Origin: Pseudomonadota bacterium
GTDB lineage: Bacteria > Myxococcota > JACRCW01 > JAFGSX01
DNA: 64,000 bases
Reading direction: 5' to 3'
NCBI GenBank assembly: GCA_043821645.1
Contig: JBDRCO010000037.1
Coordinates: 1-64,000 of the forward strand
A model generated the notes under the pieces. It saw nothing but the letters and a program-made list of their open reading frames with translations. It was not told the origin of the DNA and made no database searches. Shown piece after piece: positions 4,608-14,479 of this stretch (within the stretch, counting starts at the first letter, position 1; every line of letters starts with the position of its first letter). The translations under genes and the position numbers were made by a program.

Positions 4608-4909
4608 ACTGATTCCTGGTCTGCGCATCGCGTGAAGCTGTCATCCCAGTCTCGCACCCTTCCTGGCCCGCGCAGGTGATTCTGATCGCGTCGGTCCTGC
4701 GCTCTCCCCGGCAAGGTCACCGCTGTCTGCCAAGCCCCTCGCGCCGGGCACACCAGCTCGACGTGCCTGGGTGCGCACCCTGGAATCACCCTGTGGCAGG
4801 CGAACGCGAGGGCACATCGTGCGTGTGACTGGCCCCGGGCACACCAGGGCGCTACCTCATTGACTGGGCCGGCCGAGTGTCTTCGCGAGCCGACCCGGGG
4901 GGCAATGTC

Positions 4910-5518
4910 ATGAGTCACGCAGTCTCTGCTCCGGTCACCAGTGTTCGTGTTCACAACGCCCATGGCGTCAAGCTGGTGCGTCACGACATGACCGTGTCCG
5001 ATCGCGCTTTTCTGCCCGAGTCCATGCGTGGTCTTGGGGTCACCTTCGGTCACCTGTTCTCCAATCTGCTGCGACTGGCGACTTGCCACAGCATCGAGAC
5101 CGTCTCCTACCCAGAGCAGAAGCGGCCCTACCCGCTGCGTTTTCGCGGCATGCACCGCCTGCTCCGGCGCGACGACGGTACACCGCGCTGCGTGGCCTGC
5201 TTCATGTGCTCCACGGCCTGCCCCGCGAAGTGCATCACCATCGTCGCGACAGAGCGCACCGGCTCGACCGAGAAGCGGCCCTTGAAGTTCGAGATCGATG
5301 AGATGCTGTGCGTGGACTGTGGCCTGTGCGTCGAGGCATGCCCCTGCGACGCGATCCGCATGGACACCGGTATTCATCCCGCACCGACCCTGACCCGCGA
5401 GGAGGCAGTGTTCGATCTGCCGCGGCTGCTCGCGATGAGCGGCCAGCCTGATGGCGAGATTCCCAGGACCGCACGCACGCTGGAGAGCTTGCAGGGCGCA
5501 GACCGCGAGCAGAGCTAA
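4910..5518 (+). CDS. nuoI: NADH-quinone oxidoreductase subunit I-like 2x[4Fe-4S] protein
   Basis: TVSYPEQKR..RFRGMHRL; CVACFMCSTACP and CVDCGLCVEACPCDAI. Confidence 0.8.
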   Translation: MSHAVSAPVTSVRVHNAHGVKLVRHDMTVSDRAFLPESMRGLGVTFGHLFSNLLRLATCHSIETVSYPEQKRPYPLRFRGMHRLLRRDDGTPRCVACFMCSTACPAKCITIVATERTGSTEKRPLKFEIDEMLCVDCGLCVEACPCDAIRMDTGIHPAPTLTREEAVFDLPRLLAMSGQPDGEIPRTARTLESLQGADREQS

Positions 5519-6082: not shown

Positions 6083-7645
<1,563 letters not shown>

Positions 7646-7775: not shown

Positions 7776-8240
7776 ATGTTCGGACCCACTCCCGATGGAG
7801 ACAGACGACGCCTGCTGACCGCGGGTGTGGCAGGGCTGGTGCTAGCCGCCAGTGGCATGGTGGTCGGCGCCCTGCGCCTGGCCCTGGGGCGGTCACAGCG
7901 CCGGCGCTGGGTGCCGGTGGGACGGGTCGGCGAGTTCGTACCGGGCACCTGGCGGCTCATCGAGCAGGTGCCGGCTTATGTCGTGGTGAGCGCGGCCGGT
8001 GTGGCCGCGGTGAGCGCCCGCTGTACCCACCTGGGCTGCACGGTCCGGCGCCAGGGCGATGGATTCCTGTGCCCCTGTCATGGGAGCCGCTTTGGACTCG
8101 ACGGCGAGGCGCTCAACCCGCCGGCGCGTGCCCCCTTGCCCTGGCTGCGTGTCGAGATCGATGGGGAGCGCGTGTTCGTGCTGCCCGACGTCACGGTGGT
8201 CAGCGGGACCTTCACCGCGGTGGGAGGCGCCGGTGTCTGA
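7776..8240 (+). CDS. Rieske [2Fe-2S] subunit of a Rieske/cytochrome b complex
   Basis: CTHLGC and CPCHGSRF boxes; Tat-like DRRRLL followed by a TM helix. Confidence 0.9.
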   Translation: MFGPTPDGDRRRLLTAGVAGLVLAASGMVVGALRLALGRSQRRRWVPVGRVGEFVPGTWRLIEQVPAYVVVSAAGVAAVSARCTHLGCTVRRQGDGFLCPCHGSRFGLDGEALNPPARAPLPWLRVEIDGERVFVLPDVTVVSGTFTAVGGAGV

Positions 8241-8901
8241 GCCCCGCTCGGGTCGCGCCCTGCGATCGGGCCGCAGCTTCTGGCTGCACCTGCACCCGCC
8301 GCGTGTGCACGCCGACACGCTCCGCCCGACCACGACCCTTGGCCTGGGTGTGCTGGCCGTGACCTTGCTTGCACTCCTCGTCGTCACCGGCGTCGTGCTC
8401 ATGCTGCTGTACACGCCGAGCCCCGAGCGGGCCCACGGTGACCTGCGCGACATCGCCTATGCCGTGCCCTTTGGCCGACTGCTGCGCAACGTGCACCGCC
8501 TGGCGACTCACGGCCTGGTGGTGGTGGTGGCTCTGCACATGCTTCGCGTGCTGCTGGTGGCGGCCTACCGCGGCCGGCGCTGGCTCAACTGGCTGGTCGG
8601 CCTGGGTCTCCTCGGAACCACGCTGGGGCTGGCCTTCACCGGCTACCTGCTGCCCTGGGATCAGACCGCGTACTGGGCCTGTACCGTCGGCGCGGACATG
8701 ATGGGCTTGCTGCCGGGGATAGGACCTGCGCTGCGGAGTGCCTTCCTGGCCGGTGACGAGGTCAGCGCGCGATCACTGCTGCGCTTCTACGTGCTGCACG
8801 TGGGTGTGTTGCCCGGGCTGGGTCTGGGTCTGGTGGTCTATCACCTTTGGCGTGTGCGCAAGGATGGCGGACTGGCGCTTCACGGCGAGGACCGGTCATG
8901 A
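8233..8901 (+). CDS. Cytochrome b N-terminal part (cytochrome b6-like)
   Basis: RNVHRLATH..LHMLRV, FTGYLLPWDQTAYW, RFYVLH..YHLW; GGAGG RBS; overlaps the Rieske stop. Confidence 0.92.
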   Translation: MSEPRSGRALRSGRSFWLHLHPPRVHADTLRPTTTLGLGVLAVTLLALLVVTGVVLMLLYTPSPERAHGDLRDIAYAVPFGRLLRNVHRLATHGLVVVVALHMLRVLLVAAYRGRRWLNWLVGLGLLGTTLGLAFTGYLLPWDQTAYWACTVGADMMGLLPGIGPALRSAFLAGDEVSARSLLRFYVLHVGVLPGLGLGLVVYHLWRVRKDGGLALHGEDRS

Positions 8902-9683
8902 GCCGCAAGAAGCGACGCTCCGCCACGGTCTCGTCGTCACCGCCGCACGAAGGCGGCGACAGCCTGTCCGGCACAGGCCTCCCCGACCTCGTTGCCGGGC
9001 CAGAAGTCTCGCAGGCGGTAAGTGGCGATCCTCACCCTCTGCCTCCGAAGCTCGACGGCAAAGAAGCTCCCGTTCGTGGCCTGGTGGAATCCTGGCCCTC
9101 GCTGGTGGTGCGCGAGGCCACCCTGGTGGTGGCGGCGCTGGCCCTGCTCACATTCTTGGCCTTGCTGTTCGATGCGCCCCTCGCGGACCTGGCCACGCCC
9201 GCCCAGCCCGACAATCCCGAGAAGGCTCCCTGGTACTTCGTGGGCATGCAGGAAATGGTCAGCTATTCGGCCACGTCGGGAGTCTTGCTGTTTCCGGGCG
9301 CTTTGCTGGTGGCCCTGCTGCTATTGCCCATGCTTGAGCGCCGCGGTTCGAGGACAGGGCGATGGTTTGCGGACAGTGGCGGCGTGTCATTCGGGCTCGC
9401 ACTGTTGCTAGGACTGGCGAGCTCCAGCCTGGGTCTGCTGGCGTGGGAACAGGACCTGACGCGCCCGGGTGTGCTGGACCCGGCGCTGCTCACGGTGCTG
9501 ACCGGCCTCGTCGCCAGCGGCGCGGTGGGGCTGCTGCAGCGTCGCTGGCACGCCGCCCTGAGCGTGCTGATGGGTGTGCTGCTGGCCGCCTACCTGGTGT
9601 TCACCGTCGTGGGAGTGCTGTGTCGAGGCCCCTCGTGGCAGTTCTTCTGGCCCTGGCAACCGTGGACAGGAGGCGCCGGATGA
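8898..9683 (+). CDS. Cytochrome b subunit IV-like protein
   Basis: FDAPL..PDNPEKAPWYFVGMQEM (APWY variant of PEWY); multiple TM segments; ATGA overlap. Confidence 0.85.
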   Translation: MSRKKRRSATVSSSPPHEGGDSLSGTGLPDLVAGPEVSQAVSGDPHPLPPKLDGKEAPVRGLVESWPSLVVREATLVVAALALLTFLALLFDAPLADLATPAQPDNPEKAPWYFVGMQEMVSYSATSGVLLFPGALLVALLLLPMLERRGSRTGRWFADSGGVSFGLALLLGLASSSLGLLAWEQDLTRPGVLDPALLTVLTGLVASGAVGLLQRRWHAALSVLMGVLLAAYLVFTVVGVLCRGPSWQFFWPWQPWTGGAG

Positions 9684-10603
9684 GTCGCGCCTGGAACACG
9701 GGTTTTGCCCTGGCCTGCGCAGGCCTAGTGGTTGCGGTGGCCCTGGCCTGGGTGACCGAGGCGCGGCGCCCGTGGCATGGATCCGAGGCCCAGAGCGGGT
9801 CGAGTGCGCCAGGTGTCGTCGAGCTTGTGGGTATCGCAGGTGTGGAGCGCTGCCAGACCTGCCATGCCGTTTCCGACGACGGCGTGGACCATGCCCATGC
9901 CACGCTTCGCTCCTCACATCCGGCTCGCGTGCAGGGCTGTGTGGCGTGCCACGGTGGCGAGGGGCGAGCCCTGGATGCCGAGCACGCCCATGCCAGGGCA
10001 GGGCGCCATCGCCTGCTGCCCGCAGAGCAACGGGCCGCGCGCTGCGTGCTGTGTCACGTGCCGGGCAGCGTCGATGGGACTCACGACGTCGTGCGCGGCT
10101 TTCAGGCCATGGCGGATCTCGGCTGTCTGAGCTGTCACCGTCTTCGTGACCTGCGGCAAGCCGCGGATCAGCAGGGCGGCTACGGACCCGACCTCGACGA
10201 CGTGGGGCGGCTGGAACCCGCACGGCTGCGCCAGATGCTGCACGAACCCAAACATGCATTTGGCTCCACCACGGACATGCCCTCGTTCGGCGGTCTGCTC
10301 GACGCCCAGCCAGCGATCGAACGCGCCCTGCTCACGGCCCTGGCCAGTCTGCGCGCAGATCTGCCGAGGCCACGTGCCCGCGGCGATGCCCAACGTGCCT
10401 GCGCAGGCTGCCACGCCAGCCGACCCGCGCGTGGTCTCACCGCGCATGGCTGCGTCTGGATCCTCGAGCGTCGGGACGCGCTGCGGTGCGAGCGCTGTCA
10501 CGTCCATGCCTTGCCGCCAGGCAGCGCCAATGAGGGCCGTTGCCTGTACCTGGACGGTCAACGCAGCGTCTGTGGAGTATGCCACCAGGAGGCGCCGCGA
10601 TGA
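9680..10603 (+). CDS. Membrane-anchored heptaheme cytochrome c
   Basis: Seven CxxCH motifs: CQTCH, CVACH, CVLCH, CLSCH, CAGCH, CERCH, CGVCH; N-terminal TM; ATGA overlap. Confidence 0.88.
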   Translation: MSRAWNTGFALACAGLVVAVALAWVTEARRPWHGSEAQSGSSAPGVVELVGIAGVERCQTCHAVSDDGVDHAHATLRSSHPARVQGCVACHGGEGRALDAEHAHARAGRHRLLPAEQRAARCVLCHVPGSVDGTHDVVRGFQAMADLGCLSCHRLRDLRQAADQQGGYGPDLDDVGRLEPARLRQMLHEPKHAFGSTTDMPSFGGLLDAQPAIERALLTALASLRADLPRPRARGDAQRACAGCHASRPARGLTAHGCVWILERRDALRCERCHVHALPPGSANEGRCLYLDGQRSVCGVCHQEAPR

Positions 10604-11163
10604 CGGCGGACCGCCGCGAGTTTCTGGCCCAGCTGTCGCAGCTCACGGCTCTGGCCGCGGTGGGCACGAGCCTGCCTGGCTGCCGCCGTGTGGCCACCGC
10701 CGAAGCTCCGCCACTTGCCGTCGAGGGGGCCGCCCTGGAGACCCTGCGCGAGCTGGTCGACCACGTGCTTCCCGCCGACGAGGAGCCGGGTGCGCTGGCC
10801 GCGGGGTGCGCCGAGTTCATGTCGCGCGAGCTGGCCAAAACCCAGTTCGCGGTCCTGCGCAGCGTGGTCGAGCGTGGACTCACCCTGGTCGAGGCCGACC
10901 TCAAGAAGCGCGGCGTCTCCTCTCTGGCCGCTCTCGAGGTCCCTGCCCGCGACGAGGTCCTGCGCAGCGTCGAGCGCGCCCGCGTGCGGGGCTTTGATGG
11001 TCGACGCTTTGTCCACCTGCTGGTGGTGCTCACCCTCGAGGGCTTCCTGAGTGATCCCAGGCACGGCGGCAACCGGGGGGGGGTGGGCTGGCGCTTTGCC
11101 CGCTTCACCCCGGTGCGCTGGGGCCCCGACGACGACCGCGCCTGGCGCGAGGAGACACCGTGA
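10600..11163 (+). CDS. Gluconate 2-dehydrogenase subunit 3 (gamma) family protein with Tat signal
   Basis: DRREFL twin-arginine motif; TLEGFLSDPRHGGNRGGVGW signature. Confidence 0.85.
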   Translation: MTADRREFLAQLSQLTALAAVGTSLPGCRRVATAEAPPLAVEGAALETLRELVDHVLPADEEPGALAAGCAEFMSRELAKTQFAVLRSVVERGLTLVEADLKKRGVSSLAALEVPARDEVLRSVERARVRGFDGRRFVHLLVVLTLEGFLSDPRHGGNRGGVGWRFARFTPVRWGPDDDRAWREETP

Positions 11164-12821
11164 AGCCCCTGAGCTGCGACGTGCTGGTGGTGGGATCCGG
11201 AGCGGGAGGTGCCACCGCCGCCATGGTGCTGGCGCGTCGCGGTGCGCGGGTCCTCGTCGTCGAGAAGGGGCCCTATCACACCCTGGCCGACTTCGAGCGC
11301 GATGAGCTGCGCATCTGCCGTCGCGACTTCTTCGTTCCCTTCGTCTCCGACGAGCCCAACCTGCTCCGGAGCAGCCCCGACGGTGCCTTTGGCCGTAGCA
11401 ATGAGGGCTGGACCGCCTGCTGCGTGGGCGGCGGCACCGTGCACATGAGCGGTTACTTCTACCGGCTGCACGAGCTGGATTTTCGCGCGCGCAGCGAACT
11501 CGGTGACGTCGACGGCGCCGAGGTCTGGGACTGGCCCTTTGGCTACGCGGACCTGGCGCCCTACTACGATCGCGTCGAGGCCTTGCTCGGGGTCACCGGT
11601 CAGGCTGGCGATAATCCCTTCGACGCGCCTCGCCAGATGCCCTATCCCTTGCCACCGCTGCGCGATCATCCGGCTGCAGGGACCCTCGACGACACGCTGC
11701 GCTCCCTGGGCTGGCATCCCTTTCACACACCCCGCGCCGTGCTCAGCCAGTCCTACGACGGTCGCCCGCGCTGCACTTACAGCGGGCTGTGCGGATCCTA
11801 TGGGTGCGAGACCGGAGCAAAATCCAGCGCACTGTCCGCGGTGCTGCCCAAGGCTGTGGCCACAGGCCGCTGCCGAGTGCTGTCCGGCCACTTGGTGAAT
11901 GAGATCCTGTGCGCTGACGACGGCAAGGTGACAGGCGCCGTGCTGCGGGATCGCGATGGCAGCGAGAAGAGGATTGAAGCGCGGGCGGTCTGCCTGGCCG
12001 CAGGCGCTATCCAGAGCGCGAGGCTGCTGCTCAACTCACGATCGGCGCGCTTCCCGCGCGGCCTTGCCAACAGCAACGACAGGGTGGGGCGCCACCTGTT
12101 CTTCAGCACCTTCGCCCACGTCGAGGCCGAGTTCCTGCGCGAGGGTGGGGGCCAGAGGCTGGCCGAGTTCGATGATCCGCTGCCCTGGCTCGGCCGCAGC
12201 GTACAGGATCACTACCTGCTCGATGGACAGGGAGGCCGGCGCAAGGGTGGCACCTTGCGCTTCGACTTCGTGCACCCCAATCCCATCTACAACGCCGAGC
12301 ACGTGGCTGTGCGCCATGGCCAGGTGATCTGGGGCCAGGCGCTCAAGCAGGCGCTGCGGCGCCGTTTTCAGCAGGGCAAGACCCTCGAGGTCGAGATCTT
12401 TGGCGAGTTTCTTCCGACGCCGGACACCCGGGTCGAGGTCGACGACAAGGTGCGCGATCGCTTCGGTGCGCCGGTCGCCAGGGTCACCGTGGTGCAGCAC
12501 CCGCGCAACCTGGAGATTGCAGGCGAGCTCGCTGGCCACGCGCGTCAGGCCTTCGAGGCCCTGGGCGCAGACAGCATCGACGTGGTGGTGCCCTCGGGTG
12601 TGACCTACGTGTTGCAGGGCGGTACCTGCGTGGCTGGCACGGACCCCGCGCTGAGCGTCCTCGATGCGGGCTGCCGCAGTCACGAGGTGGACAACCTGTA
12701 CGTGGTCGATGGCAGCTTCATGCCCAGTTCGGGTGGGGTGCCCATCACCCTGACCATCCACGCCAACGCCTGGCGCGTGGCCGAGCAGCTGGCTGCACGG
12801 CTGGCCCGGCGCGAGCTCTGA
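11160..12821 (+). CDS. GMC family FAD oxidoreductase (gluconate/2-ketogluconate dehydrogenase-like)
   Basis: GSGAGG Rossmann motif, VGGGT, C-x5-C-x4-C cluster, NLYVVDGSFMP..PITLTI.ANA. Confidence 0.9.
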   Translation: MKPLSCDVLVVGSGAGGATAAMVLARRGARVLVVEKGPYHTLADFERDELRICRRDFFVPFVSDEPNLLRSSPDGAFGRSNEGWTACCVGGGTVHMSGYFYRLHELDFRARSELGDVDGAEVWDWPFGYADLAPYYDRVEALLGVTGQAGDNPFDAPRQMPYPLPPLRDHPAAGTLDDTLRSLGWHPFHTPRAVLSQSYDGRPRCTYSGLCGSYGCETGAKSSALSAVLPKAVATGRCRVLSGHLVNEILCADDGKVTGAVLRDRDGSEKRIEARAVCLAAGAIQSARLLLNSRSARFPRGLANSNDRVGRHLFFSTFAHVEAEFLREGGGQRLAEFDDPLPWLGRSVQDHYLLDGQGGRRKGGTLRFDFVHPNPIYNAEHVAVRHGQVIWGQALKQALRRRFQQGKTLEVEIFGEFLPTPDTRVEVDDKVRDRFGAPVARVTVVQHPRNLEIAGELAGHARQAFEALGADSIDVVVPSGVTYVLQGGTCVAGTDPALSVLDAGCRSHEVDNLYVVDGSFMPSSGGVPITLTIHANAWRVAEQLAARLARREL

Positions 12822-12823
12822 GC

Positions 12824-13618
12824 GTGCCCCTCGACGACGGTACCGATCTCTACGACGATCCAGAGCTGTATGACATGGAACACGCGGGCTACGCCGGCGA
12901 TGTCCCCTGGTACCTGGCGCTGTGCCGACGTCCGGGTGTGCAGCGGGTGCTCGAGCTGGGGTGTGGCACAGGTCGGCTGCTGCTGCCGCTGCGCCACGCC
13001 GGGGTGCAGGTCCTGGGGGTGGATGCGAGCCCGGCCATGATAGCGCACTGTCAGTACAGGCTGGGGGCGCTGCTGCCGATGCTGCCCGGGCACGCCCTGT
13101 GTCAGGTGGGCGACATGCGCACGCTGCGCGGCGCGGCCGACTCTATGGATCTGGTGATCGCGGCATTCAATACCTTGCAGCACGTGGACGAGCGCGACAT
13201 CGACGCGGTGCTCGAAACCGTGCGTCACCACCTCTCTCCCGCCGGGCTGTTTGCCTTCGATGTGTACGCTCCCGCGCGCGAGCTTGAGCATGCGCGCATG
13301 CACGAGGACGCGCAGGTGGCTCGGGACGCGCTTGGCCAGCCATGGCAGGTCACCAGGCAGCGCCAGCTCGAGGTCCGTACCTCGTGGCTCGAATCGCGAT
13401 TTCGTTGCGAACCTGTGCCCGCGGACGCGCCTGGCAGCGAGACAACTCAACGGCGGCTGCGACAGTACCAGTGGACCCGCGATGCGCTCGCATCGGCCCT
13501 GCGTCGTCATGGTCTGCAGCTGTGCGTCGAGGCCGGTGACCTCGATGGTCGTCCCCTCACGCTACATTCGCCGCGCTGGCTCGCCGTGGCGCGCCCTGGA
13601 CAGGACGACAGCTGCTGA
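12824..13618 (+). CDS. Class I SAM-dependent methyltransferase
   Basis: VLELGCGTGRL motif I, GVDASPAMI, GDMR. Confidence 0.85.
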   Translation: MPLDDGTDLYDDPELYDMEHAGYAGDVPWYLALCRRPGVQRVLELGCGTGRLLLPLRHAGVQVLGVDASPAMIAHCQYRLGALLPMLPGHALCQVGDMRTLRGAADSMDLVIAAFNTLQHVDERDIDAVLETVRHHLSPAGLFAFDVYAPARELEHARMHEDAQVARDALGQPWQVTRQRQLEVRTSWLESRFRCEPVPADAPGSETTQRRLRQYQWTRDALASALRRHGLQLCVEAGDLDGRPLTLHSPRWLAVARPGQDDSC

Positions 13619-14374
13619 TCAGACCCCTGTGACCTGGGCTGCCAGGCTGTCTGGCCAGGGATCGTCCAGCAAGCGCTGCGGCTCGGACCACAGTGTTGCG
13701 TCGAAACCCATGTGTCGCAGGGGTCCGGCCAGGTCGTCCGGGAGTGGTGCGCTCACCGTCACCGGCACCCCGGTGATGGGGTGCTCGAACCGGATCGCAG
13801 CCGCGTGCAGCGCCAGCCTGGTCAGCCCGTGGAACGCCTGCACCGCGCGATTGAAGCGGTTGTCGCCGTGATTGGCGTCGTTGACCACAGGGTGGCGCAG
13901 GTGCTTGAGGTGACGCCTCACCTGGTGCAGTCGCCCGGTGGTCGGTGCGGCCTCGACCAGAGCCATGGCACGCGGCTGTGTCTCCACCGTGGCCAGGGTG
14001 CGAAAGGCTGTCTGGGCCGACACGCGCTCCTTGCCGGGTGCGCGCGGGATGGCGTAGTCAACCAGGCCGCAGGCTGGCGGCTCTCCCCGCACCAGCGCCA
14101 GGTAGCGCTTGTGTACGCACCGCTGGTTGAACAGCTGATGCATGGCGTTCGCCGCGTCCGGACTCAGGGCGAGCAGCACCACTCCGCTGGTGCCTTGATC
14201 CAGCCGATGTACCAGGAACACGTCCCGGTGTAGTTGATCGGCGAGGAGCCGGTCGAGATACTGCGGTGCTCTGGCCCAGCCGCGGTGCATGGGGAGACCC
14301 GATGGTTTATCCACCGCCAGCAGGCTGTCGTCCATGTAAAGCAATGCTATGTCAGCGAAAATCATAATGTCCAA
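13619..14374 (-). CDS. RluA/TruC-family pseudouridine synthase
   Basis: AVDKPSGL, VHRLDQGTSG (catalytic Asp), TGRLHQVRRHL, LALHA. Confidence 0.92.
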   Translation of the reverse strand: MDIMIFADIALLYMDDSLLAVDKPSGLPMHRGWARAPQYLDRLLADQLHRDVFLVHRLDQGTSGVVLLALSPDAANAMHQLFNQRCVHKRYLALVRGEPPACGLVDYAIPRAPGKERVSAQTAFRTLATVETQPRAMALVEAAPTTGRLHQVRRHLKHLRHPVVNDANHGDNRFNRAVQAFHGLTRLALHAAAIRFEHPITGVPVTVSAPLPDDLAGPLRHMGFDATLWSEPQRLLDDPWPDSLAAQVTGV

Positions 14375-14479
14375 ATAATATATAGATAAAAGATGACATA
14401 GTGGAAGCTCGTGCCTATCTTACACTCACCAAGAACACACCAAGCCCTCCGCCAAGGAGCGCTCGACACGAGGAAAAGC

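Follow-up and report, generated by a model that had tools for sequence, protein, structure and literature searches.

Conserved linkage of Rieske/cytochrome b genes with genes for a heptaheme cytochrome and a GMC-family dehydrogenase in uncultured Myxococcota

Genes at the locus

We describe a block of seven genes at positions 7776 to 13618 of a 64 kb stretch of DNA (hereafter the window), which represents the first 64 kb of the 314 kb contig JBDRCO010000037.1 of an uncultured groundwater bacterium whose draft genome comprises 7.07 Mb on 140 contigs and is 94.7% complete. The first six genes (7776 to 12821) encode a Rieske protein, a cytochrome b in two parts, a heptaheme c-type cytochrome (MHC7), and the gamma and catalytic subunits of a flavin adenine dinucleotide (FAD)-dependent dehydrogenase of the GMC family. 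The linkage of these genes is genuine; it is conserved and occurs widely among uncultured bacteria of a single phylum, the Myxococcota. Judging from the sequences, we give even odds (a probability of about 0.5) that the six genes encode one respiratory module, in which the cytochrome subunit of the dehydrogenase would double as the c-type cytochrome subunit of the Rieske/cytochrome b complex. Throughout the text, G numbers denote genomes and L numbers denote loci compared in the analysis, G000 being the genome of the window.

All seven open reading frames (ORFs) are located on the forward strand (Table 1). Successive genes overlap by 8, 4, 4, 4 and 4 nucleotides (nt), and the last junction is a gap of 2 nt; the ORF coordinates thus bear out the tightly packed, co-oriented arrangement that an earlier note on this DNA had described. 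On either side of the block the neighbouring gene, ffh or a pseudouridine synthase gene, runs in the opposite direction, so that the block forms a self-contained, co-oriented unit. A scan for promoters and terminators revealed no promoter-like site within the block or in the gap 5' of the Rieske gene, two promoter-like sites downstream of the block, and one weak terminator-like site inside the methyltransferase gene, the latter two counts being within chance expectation.

Table 1. Genes of the block and further features of the window, with the sequence evidence for each
Feature	Position	Strand	Evidence
Rieske 2Fe-2S protein	7776-8240	+	PF00355 (E 1.3e-10); twin-arginine N-terminus DRRRLL
Cytochrome b, N-terminal four-helix b6-like part	8233-8901	+	PF00033 (E 1.4e-33)
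Subunit IV-like membrane protein (cytochrome b C-terminal part)	8898-9683	+	NCBIfam memb_ExtQ (E 1.8e-14)
Heptaheme c-type cytochrome MHC7	9680-10603	+	seven CxxCH
Gamma ('hitchhiker') subunit	10600-11163	+	PF13618 Gluconate_2-dh3 (E 9.8e-20); twin-arginine translocation (Tat) motif DRREFL, then LPGC
GMC-family FAD dehydrogenase, catalytic (alpha) subunit	11160-12821	+	GMC_oxred_C (E 1e-16), GMC_oxred_N (E 2e-14)
Class I S-adenosylmethionine (SAM) methyltransferase	12824-13618	+	PF13649 Methyltransf_25 (E 4e-19)
ffh	6083-7645	-	
Pseudouridine synthase	13619-14374	-	
Two promoter-like sites	14344-14421		
NuoI-like ORF	4877-5518		two 4Fe-4S motifs (Fer4 families)
Lipoprotein-like ORF, 161 amino acids	5571-6056		no Pfam match
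ORF of 304 amino acids	14411-15325		signal-like N-terminus; no Pfam match

Conservation of the gene order

Three partly overlapping sets were compared: (a) 40 relatives, (b) 21 loci found by scanning species-representative genomes with a pattern derived from the MHC7 alignment, five of which duplicate contigs of set (a), and (c) 401 genomes sampled evenly from the phylum, for which gamma positions were read from the fetched locus sequences. Gene calls based on the GC content of third codon positions missed genes and were poor on loci of lower GC content; they serve here as rough context only.

A GMC match (E <= 1e-30) was present in 24 and a cytochrome b in 15 of the 40 relatives of set (a). 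Seven of them, G001, G005, G014, G015, G024, G037 and G038 (families f1, f4, f13 and f21), show the order of the window, i.e. Rieske, cytochrome b, subunit IV, MHC7, gamma, GMC, and in G031 the contig stops right after MHC7. The full order was also found in 16 of the 21 loci of set (b), which come from metagenome-assembled genomes labelled Myxococcota, Myxococcales, Polyangia, Deltaproteobacteria or Thermodesulfobacteriota. Three further loci of this set are limited by their contigs (one begins inside the subunit IV gene, one stops after MHC7, and one has no gamma match in the remaining 796 nt), one contains Rieske/cytochrome b and MHC7 only, and one contains these together with gamma and lacks GMC. 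Nearly the whole MHC7 profile is matched by 32 of the 401 genomes of set (c). All six genes occur in order in 20 of these 32 genomes; four are cut by contig ends, G268 has five genes in order and no Rieske motif within its 14.8 kb locus, and G039 and G082 possess MHC7, gamma and GMC without Rieske/cytochrome b. Conservation in relatives had been set beforehand as the test for a link between the GMC/gamma pair and the Rieske/cytochrome b genes, and the link is kept in all three sets.

The order of the cluster persists at GMC identities down to approximately 46% while the flanks vary, with no flanking gene family common to more than 5 of 24 loci. Among 31 loci, 26 permit an in-frame overlap between subunit IV and MHC7, mostly of 11 nt, and 24 permit one between MHC7 and gamma, mostly of 4 nt; as the start codon nearest to the upstream stop was taken, these figures are the tightest possible readings.

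The gamma subunit and the GMC flavoprotein

The DRREFL motif attributed to the gamma subunit by the earlier note is present in an N-terminus that reads MTADRREFL, and its twin arginine is invariant in 19 relatives. The gamma gene is the sole PF13618 match in G000, and a comparison of its product with solved chains gave no sequence match. A lipobox-like cysteine (LPGC, LSAC, LTAC and others), in many cases with Lys or Arg at position +2, follows the Tat signal in the window and in roughly half of the relatives. The gamma subunit, which is a soluble hitchhiker in the solved enzyme, may thus be exported here by the Tat pathway as a lipoprotein, and in the genome of the window it is probably lipid-anchored.

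The GMC alpha subunit has no signal peptide and begins directly with its Rossmann motif, in which GSGAGG is present. Its residues 6-545 align with residues 9-536 of the alpha subunit of the Burkholderia cepacia FAD-dependent glucose dehydrogenase (FAD-GDH; 6a2u_B, E 4.1e-49) and thus over the full length, and a full-length match was also obtained with the large subunit of the Gluconobacter fructose dehydrogenase (FDH; 7w2j_A, E 1.5e-37). The combination of a small subunit with a Tat signal and a signal-less alpha subunit predicts a hitchhiker arrangement for export. According to the report on the Burkholderia enzyme (PMC6719666), Cys212, Cys218 and Cys222 bind a 3Fe-4S cluster at the surface, through which electrons travel from FAD to the multiheme subunit, Cys213 is disulfide-bonded to Cys152 of gamma, FAD is joined to His105 by continuous density, and His476 and Asn519 form the catalytic pair. 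In the GMC of the window, Cys205, Cys211 and Cys216 align to the 3Fe-4S triad and are predicted to bind such a cluster, and His95 (GGGTVHM) aligns to the position of covalent FAD attachment (TWHW); all four residues are conserved without exception in 22 relatives. An enzyme with such a 3Fe-4S triad should have a cytochrome partner, and no cytochrome other than MHC7 is encoded nearby.

The cysteines that would join the two subunits, the second Cys of alpha and that of the motif CWW(A/N)P in gamma, are present together in 31 pairs. Two independent losses of both cysteines are seen, one in the window and G001 and one in L031, and the gamma cysteine was never seen without its alpha counterpart. 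A further 12 pairs (solo pairs, pairs without Rieske/cytochrome b, L009 and L072) have the alpha cysteine and a differing gamma tail in which the pattern did not score the gamma cysteine; in L009 and L072 a cysteine is nevertheless visible by eye. On the evidence of these alignments, alpha and gamma behave as co-varying subunits, as in the solved enzyme.

The catalytic His/Asn pair is not kept: His476 and Asn519 correspond to Val484 and Pro528 in the window. Pro528 is near-invariant throughout the GMC family, and the relatives carry a histidine at position 484 (main linked clade) or 487 (most others), where the window has Val484 and Gly487 and G001 has Val and Asn. In addition, the near-invariant Arg491 and Phe492 are replaced by Val and Ala in the window. 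Residues 482-493 (window positions 12600 to 12640) read TYVLQGGTCVAG in the window versus TYHLQHGTCRFG or TYVLQHGTCRFG in relatives, and the altered loop is shared in part by G001. The invariant Asn536 might stand in for the catalytic asparagine. As the GMC gene is intact and 69% identical to that of G001, it is not decaying, although its chemistry may differ.

The heptaheme cytochrome

MHC7 contains exactly seven CxxCH motifs, the number counted at first sight, and an alignment of 56 sequences shows no variation in any of the seven or at Met200 and His256. An N-terminal membrane helix is followed by hemes 1-3, a class I domain of the His/Met type (MPSF) with heme 4, and a C-terminal part with three hemes. 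The AlphaFold2 model calculated from the 56-sequence alignment has a predicted local distance difference test (pLDDT) score of 83.9 and places the N-terminal helix at residues 3-28. Likeness to solved structures is limited to residues 113-231, the heme-4 domain, which resembles class I cytochromes such as CcoO, CcoP and QcrC: VIA-align matched this domain alone among 48,161 chains (best Z 9.5), and a Foldseek search of the model against the PDB gave no match at E <= 0.001, structure matching thus having covered the class I domain and barely probed the N- and C-terminal heme parts. Similarity to the cytochrome subunits of FDH and GDH is weak (E 0.034 and 0.13, respectively). A triheme class I subunit as found in these enzymes is absent from the block, since the adjoining cytochrome has seven CxxCH motifs with one class I-like domain and the block contains no further cytochrome gene.

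An exhaustive search with the MHC7 profile yielded 555 representatives at E <= 1e-30, where word-index searches had given at least 4 (with a single sequence) and at least 17 (with a profile). Among the best 150 of these 555 matches, proteins of about 300-345 amino acids span the whole profile, and proteins of 650-1050 amino acids cover only positions 10 to 250 or so. Cytochromes with 5 and 8 hemes encoded 3' of other Rieske/cytochrome b operons in the phylum match MHC7 only from residue 1 to approximately residues 235-250, a stretch that contains the membrane helix, the first three hemes and the class I domain. Conversely, G178 and G180 encode a four-heme lipoprotein before gamma and GMC, with no Rieske/cytochrome b nearby, and this lipoprotein corresponds to the class I domain of MHC7 together with its three C-terminal hemes. 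The N-terminal half thus goes with Rieske/cytochrome b and the C-terminal half with the flavoprotein, and MHC7 joins both. From these comparisons, MHC7 looks modular, with an N-terminal half serving Rieske/cytochrome b and a C-terminal half serving gamma and GMC. The suggestion that the heptaheme cytochrome occupies the usual place of the triheme subunit holds up, in that the GMC has kept its 3Fe-4S cysteines and the trio of MHC7, gamma and GMC also stands alone. Where a trio of cytochrome, gamma and GMC occurs without Rieske/cytochrome b (L013, L081, L082 and L083 in G039, G082, G180 and G178, respectively), it is preceded by a gene for a protein of about 750 amino acids with one or two CxxCH motifs and weak beta-propeller or cytochrome d1-like matches, which may be an electron partner in that clade.

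Two genomes that carry the GMC cluster, G127 and G268, contain in addition a paralogous operon (L090, G127:C11:148500-160500; L091, G268:C11:1411000-1423000) with the order iron-sulfur (FeS)/NAD(P)-type flavoprotein, Rieske, cytochrome b, 7-CxxCH cytochrome, CcoN, CcoO. Its cytochrome has four class I domains and an N-terminal part homologous to MHC7. This cbb3-linked operon indicates that the cytochrome family of MHC7 does link Rieske/cytochrome b to a catalytic partner. The flavoprotein at the start of the operon (Pyr_redox_2, Fer4_20 and Fer4; 609 amino acids) has a counterpart in a similar upstream gene in L055 and recalls the NAD(P) oxidoreductase of anammox complexes.

The Rieske/cytochrome b half

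The Rieske protein shows box I (CTHLGC) and box II (CPCHGS), including the disulfide cysteines, and thus the arrangement CxHxGC...CxCH; its best NCBIfam matches are the iron-sulfur subunits of b6f and bc1 complexes, all under the cut-off. Cytochrome b contains the four heme-ligand histidines of helices B and D, His88 and His102 with 13 residues between them, and His189 and His204 with 14 residues between them, and lacks an N-terminal cysteine. The four histidines are kept in 24, 24, 23 and 22 of 24 aligned relatives, the misses being gaps. A spacing of 14 residues on helix D is typical of the b6 type. No Pfam match was found for the subunit IV-like protein. It contains NPEKAPWYF at the position of the Qo 'PEWY' loop, and this PE...PWY variant is present with minor changes in 25 of 25 sequences. 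The best NCBIfam match of cytochrome b is cytb_ExtP (NF040969; 221.8 bits, cut-off 290), and the subunit IV-like protein scores 54.1 bits against ExtQ (NF040970; cut-off 150); as both remain below the cut-offs, they are related to ExtP and ExtQ and not members of these families. Cytochrome b is divided between two genes only in the window and in G001, a relative of the same family; the other relatives read have both parts fused in a single ORF of about 410-460 amino acids. The cytochrome b of the locus is the sole PF00033 match in the 7.07 Mb of G000, and the linked copy is likewise single in six of the seven full-order relatives of set (a), G037 having three.

Modelling of a dehydrogenase-cytochrome complex

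The earlier note had proposed multimer modelling of the redox proteins. For the trio of GMC, gamma (residues 31-187) and MHC7 (residues 46-307), modelled with an own alignment for each chain and without cofactors, the prediction gives weak support to a physical association. It scored 0.58 (runs 0.00, 0.73 and 0.58) versus 0.00 for the best of three controls. Among 157 solved complexes, 116 passed the mark, 18 of them with scores of 0.60 or under; of 215 mismatched pairs 2 passed, both with scores in this low range. Agreement between the runs amounts to at least 0% of contacts, and the partner has a pLDDT of at least 71. The solved heterotrimers of FDH and FAD-GDH may have contributed to this prediction by memory.

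A proposed route of electrons

In the proposed module, a periplasmic FAD/3Fe-4S dehydrogenase of the GMC family would be exported by riding on the Tat-signal gamma subunit and would oxidise an alcohol or sugar-type substrate at its flavin. The electrons would reach the C-terminal hemes of MHC7 from the flavin by way of the 3Fe-4S cluster, and menaquinol oxidised at the Qo site of Rieske/cytochrome b would feed MHC7 via its N-terminal half, making MHC7 a membrane-anchored meeting point of a substrate dehydrogenase and the quinone pool. We favour the flavoprotein, by homology a dehydrogenase that reduces its cytochrome, as electron donor, with electrons leaving MHC7 to a periplasmic acceptor encoded outside the operon. 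Judged by its genes, the periplasmic electron-transfer repertoire of G000 is rich. Six NrfD-family genes lie near multiheme cytochromes with 3 to 16 CxxCH motifs (contigs C53, C6, C81 and C63), and their neighbours include a 16-CxxCH cytochrome, a pair with 5 and 9 CxxCH, a 3-CxxCH protein together with an FeS protein, and a molybdopterin-type enzyme. The genome also contains one partial COX1 match at a contig end and no FixO match.

A stricter form of this module, in which Rieske/cytochrome b would be the obligate quinone-coupling unit of a single dehydrogenase, i.e. a hard-wired supercomplex connecting an organic substrate and menaquinone in either direction via FAD, 3Fe-4S, seven c hemes and Rieske, is a tentative and rather doubtful extension. 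In such a supercomplex, Rieske/cytochrome b may run in reverse in bacteria that have a quinol oxidase only.

Evidence against a single module and alternative explanations

A number of observations weigh against a single module working in the proposed way, and several of them lead to other explanations of the gene cluster. The first concern the fate of the electrons, as the operon encodes no acceptor for MHC7. Moreover, of 10 cluster genomes checked, six gave no match to the heme-copper oxidase family PF00115, namely G045 (98% complete), G005 (95%), G024 (92%), G001 (82%), G015 (97%) and G014 (95%); the family was found in G096, G268 and G127, and as a fragment in G038. Cytochrome bd, a quinol oxidase, was detected in four of five cluster genomes checked, among them that of the window.

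These findings would fit a substrate:menaquinone oxidoreductase, with electrons running from the substrate via FAD, 3Fe-4S, MHC7 and Rieske to the Qo site and Rieske/cytochrome b operating in reverse. The latter would then take the role of the triheme subunit of the Gluconobacter or Burkholderia type, and menaquinol would be passed on to quinol oxidases such as cytochrome bd. The retention of the six genes as a closed set without an acceptor gene and the presence of a single cytochrome b gene in most of these genomes would be readily explained in this way, and so would the occurrence of gamma in every MHC7 genome. PF13618 was matched in 32 of 32 MHC7 genomes versus 243 of 401 genomes overall (including the unpublished G195), although this co-occurrence is partly circular, because MHC7 is recognised by its proposed GMC-docking C-terminal part, and comes from genomes that are related to one another, which also limits what it contributes to the proposed module. 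We nevertheless consider menaquinone reduction unlikely. A reversed Q cycle consumes proton-motive force, and running the complex in this direction would be costly by known Q-cycle energetics. The Rieske motifs, i.e. the disulfide cysteines and CPCHGS, are those of ordinary bc-type centres; if electrons first drop to such a centre, the low potential of an alcohol or sugar donor is wasted, and a cytochrome reducing quinone directly would be the simpler solution. In addition, cytochrome, gamma and GMC occur without Rieske/cytochrome b in four genomes, and the absence of an oxidase from draft genomes is no proof.

The second group of observations concerns the linkage itself. Five of the 32 MHC7 genomes of set (c) have Rieske/cytochrome b and MHC7 without a GMC gene behind. 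In these genomes a GMC of the linked clade is located on another contig, preceded by gamma in G066, G071, G076 and G091, and G099 contains two GMC copies with no gamma match beside either. Eleven relatives have gamma-GMC pairs with 40-51% identity and no Rieske/cytochrome b, and in 10 of these 11 no ORF with CxxCH adjoins; the flavoprotein family can thus work with unlinked partners. For the modelled trio of GMC, gamma and MHC7, no interface was reported and one of the three runs scored 0.00. Furthermore, a search of sequencing runs listed no RNA run that contains the stretch, and two RNA sequencing runs, from the study of the best-matching DNA run, contained next to none of the words sampled from it.

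Taken at face value, the solo pairs, the separated halves, the failed modelling run and the use of related cytochromes by other Rieske/cytochrome b operons would all be expected if the genes were merely co-transcribed, with Rieske/cytochrome b and MHC7 forming an ordinary quinol:cytochrome c oxidoreductase and gamma-GMC working independently with another acceptor. However, such a chance association would hardly be kept in order down to GMC identities of about 46% with flanks that all change, and it is difficult to reconcile with a 4 nt overlap of MHC7 and gamma that is possible in most loci, with a 3Fe-4S triad that implies a cytochrome partner, and with a C-terminal half of MHC7 that accompanies gamma and GMC even when Rieske/cytochrome b is absent. 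Mere co-transcription therefore appears quite unlikely to us.

The history of the linkage is not simple. In a tree of GMC sequences, the linked clade (25 rows) received a support of 100 in the Shimodaira-Hasegawa-like approximate likelihood ratio test (SH-aLRT) and includes the GMCs of the separated genomes, five of whose six GMC loci were used because the GMC of G071 is broken in two pieces and was left out. The window and G001 group instead with the four GMCs without Rieske/cytochrome b (6 rows, SH-aLRT 98). By contrast, a short cytochrome b tree (in which the label of L078 is wrong, its alignment having ended early) places the cytochrome b of the window and G001 with the MHC7-linked type, apart from nine other Rieske/cytochrome b sequences (SH-aLRT 99). 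This disagreement may reflect repeated joining of the two halves, or an exchange of the GMC gene.

Finally, with no histidine at positions 484 and 487 and with altered Arg491 and Phe492, the catalytic competence of the GMC of the window is not assured. The altered loop could be accommodated if the flavoprotein were a terminal reductase, i.e. if menaquinol were oxidised by Rieske/cytochrome b in the forward direction and electrons passed via MHC7 and 3Fe-4S to the flavin and on to a periplasmic acceptor in anaerobic respiration. The paralogous operons of G127 and G268, which place an electron acceptor (CcoN and CcoO of cbb3) behind the multiheme cytochrome, and the many cluster genomes in which no heme-copper oxidase was detected would agree with such a direction. 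The ketone/alcohol and lactone/aldose couples, however, lie far below the potential of a Rieske centre, so that reduction driven through the flavin would be uphill, and the gene context does not suggest a substrate of high potential. The solved homologues found are dehydrogenases (PMC6719666). Flavin reduction at the expense of menaquinol is thus highly improbable, and we retain a single module with the dehydrogenase as electron donor as the preferred explanation.

Other genes in and around the block

The methyltransferase gene, which the earlier note had included in the block, is part of it with respect to orientation and spacing but lies outside the conserved unit. It follows the GMC gene in the window and G001 only, and we have rejected it as a component of the system. 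Its best NCBIfam match is a methyltransferase of daptide-type ribosomally synthesized and post-translationally modified peptides (83.9 bits versus a cut-off of 175). On the other side of the block, the NuoI-like ORF stands alone 5' of the lipoprotein-like gene and ffh; nuo-like genes in its neighbourhood were not sought. The ORF of 304 amino acids beyond the pseudouridine synthase gene and the lipoprotein-like ORF both remained without a Pfam match. At the 3' end of the cluster, 5 of 24 loci (L004, L028, L031, L034 and L043, which include both loci that have lost GMC) encode a secreted protein of about 430-450 amino acids with a GCGCGCG stretch and many DxDxDGxxD repeats resembling thrombospondin type 3 repeats.

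Comparison with known systems

Rieske/cytochrome b complexes are commonly seen as general quinol:cytochrome c oxidoreductases, the anammox bacteria providing the main known case of complexes with built-in catalytic subunits. Our search of full-text literature, which covers few subscription journals, found no Rieske/cytochrome b complex encoded together with a GMC/gamma pair. If the supercomplex described above existed, it would be the first Rieske/cytochrome b complex dedicated to a dehydrogenase of organic substrates. If the coupling is physical, MHC7 would be a natural seven-heme wire to a membrane complex from a 3Fe-4S flavoenzyme, whose GMC family is used for direct-electron-transfer glucose and fructose biosensors, and the cluster would provide a test bed for a reversible or dedicated Rieske/cytochrome b complex in bacteria that yielded no heme-copper oxidase match. 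Even in the case of mere co-transcription, it would still be a clean, widespread operon of uncultured Myxococcota, which annotation pipelines would scatter into unrelated entries such as 'hypothetical cytochrome', 'GMC oxidoreductase' and 'cytochrome b'.

With the alpha-beta-gamma complexes of FAD-GDH and FDH (PDB 6a2u, 8hdd and 7w2j), the dehydrogenase half shares a homologous, signal-less GMC alpha subunit with the 3Fe-4S triad and the histidine for covalent FAD, a small PF13618 gamma subunit with a Tat signal and, in most relatives, the alpha-gamma cysteine pair. In contrast to their triheme class I cytochrome, the cytochrome encoded here has seven hemes and an N-terminal membrane helix, and its gene follows Rieske/cytochrome b; the gamma subunit is probably a lipoprotein, and the Burkholderia pair His476/Asn519 is replaced by Val484/Pro528 in the window.

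The other half resembles the Rieske/cytochrome b complexes of Kuenenia (Kustd1480-1485 and Kuste4569-4574). These complexes (PMC12954380) also combine a b6-like four-helix cytochrome b and a subunit IV-like protein with a hexa- or octaheme cytochrome c that replaces cytochrome f, and their clusters include catalytic redox subunits. These subunits are, however, an octaheme enzyme resembling hydroxylamine oxidoreductase (HAO) and a cytoplasmic NAD(P) oxidoreductase (PMC12954380), where the present cluster encodes a periplasmic GMC with gamma. Neither an NAD(P) oxidoreductase nor an HAO-like octaheme enzyme is among the seven genes of the window according to Pfam, and Kuenenia belongs to another phylum, although an NAD(P)-type gene does precede the paralogous operons of G127 and G268.

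The membrane half is nearest to ExtO, ExtP and ExtQ (Rieske, cytochrome b and membrane protein) of the extHIJKLMNOPQS cluster of Geobacter, a host formerly counted among the deltaproteobacteria, in which a split b6-like complex is likewise encoded with multiheme cytochromes. Besides cytochromes with 4, 5, 10 and 12 hemes, this cluster encodes a rhodanese-like protein and a porin but lacks GMC and gamma genes, and its function is called uncharacterised (PMC5877670).

The cbb3-linked operons L090 and L091 provide a parallel within the phylum itself, with Rieske, cytochrome b and an MHC7-related multiheme cytochrome followed by a catalytic partner. They differ in that the partner is a cbb3 oxidase, that four class I domains take the place of the three-heme tail, that an FeS/NAD(P) flavoprotein precedes Rieske, and that their cytochrome b belongs to a separate clade (9 rows, SH-aLRT 99). 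If the coupling is physical, the comparison would suggest a modular rule for these cytochromes, with the N-terminal half for Rieske/cytochrome b and an extension for the partner, i.e. a three-heme tail for GMC and class I domains for cbb3. The operon described here suggests, next to the anammox complexes, a second, independent case of a Rieske/cytochrome b complex with a built-in catalytic subunit, in another phylum and with another type of partner, namely a GMC flavoprotein.

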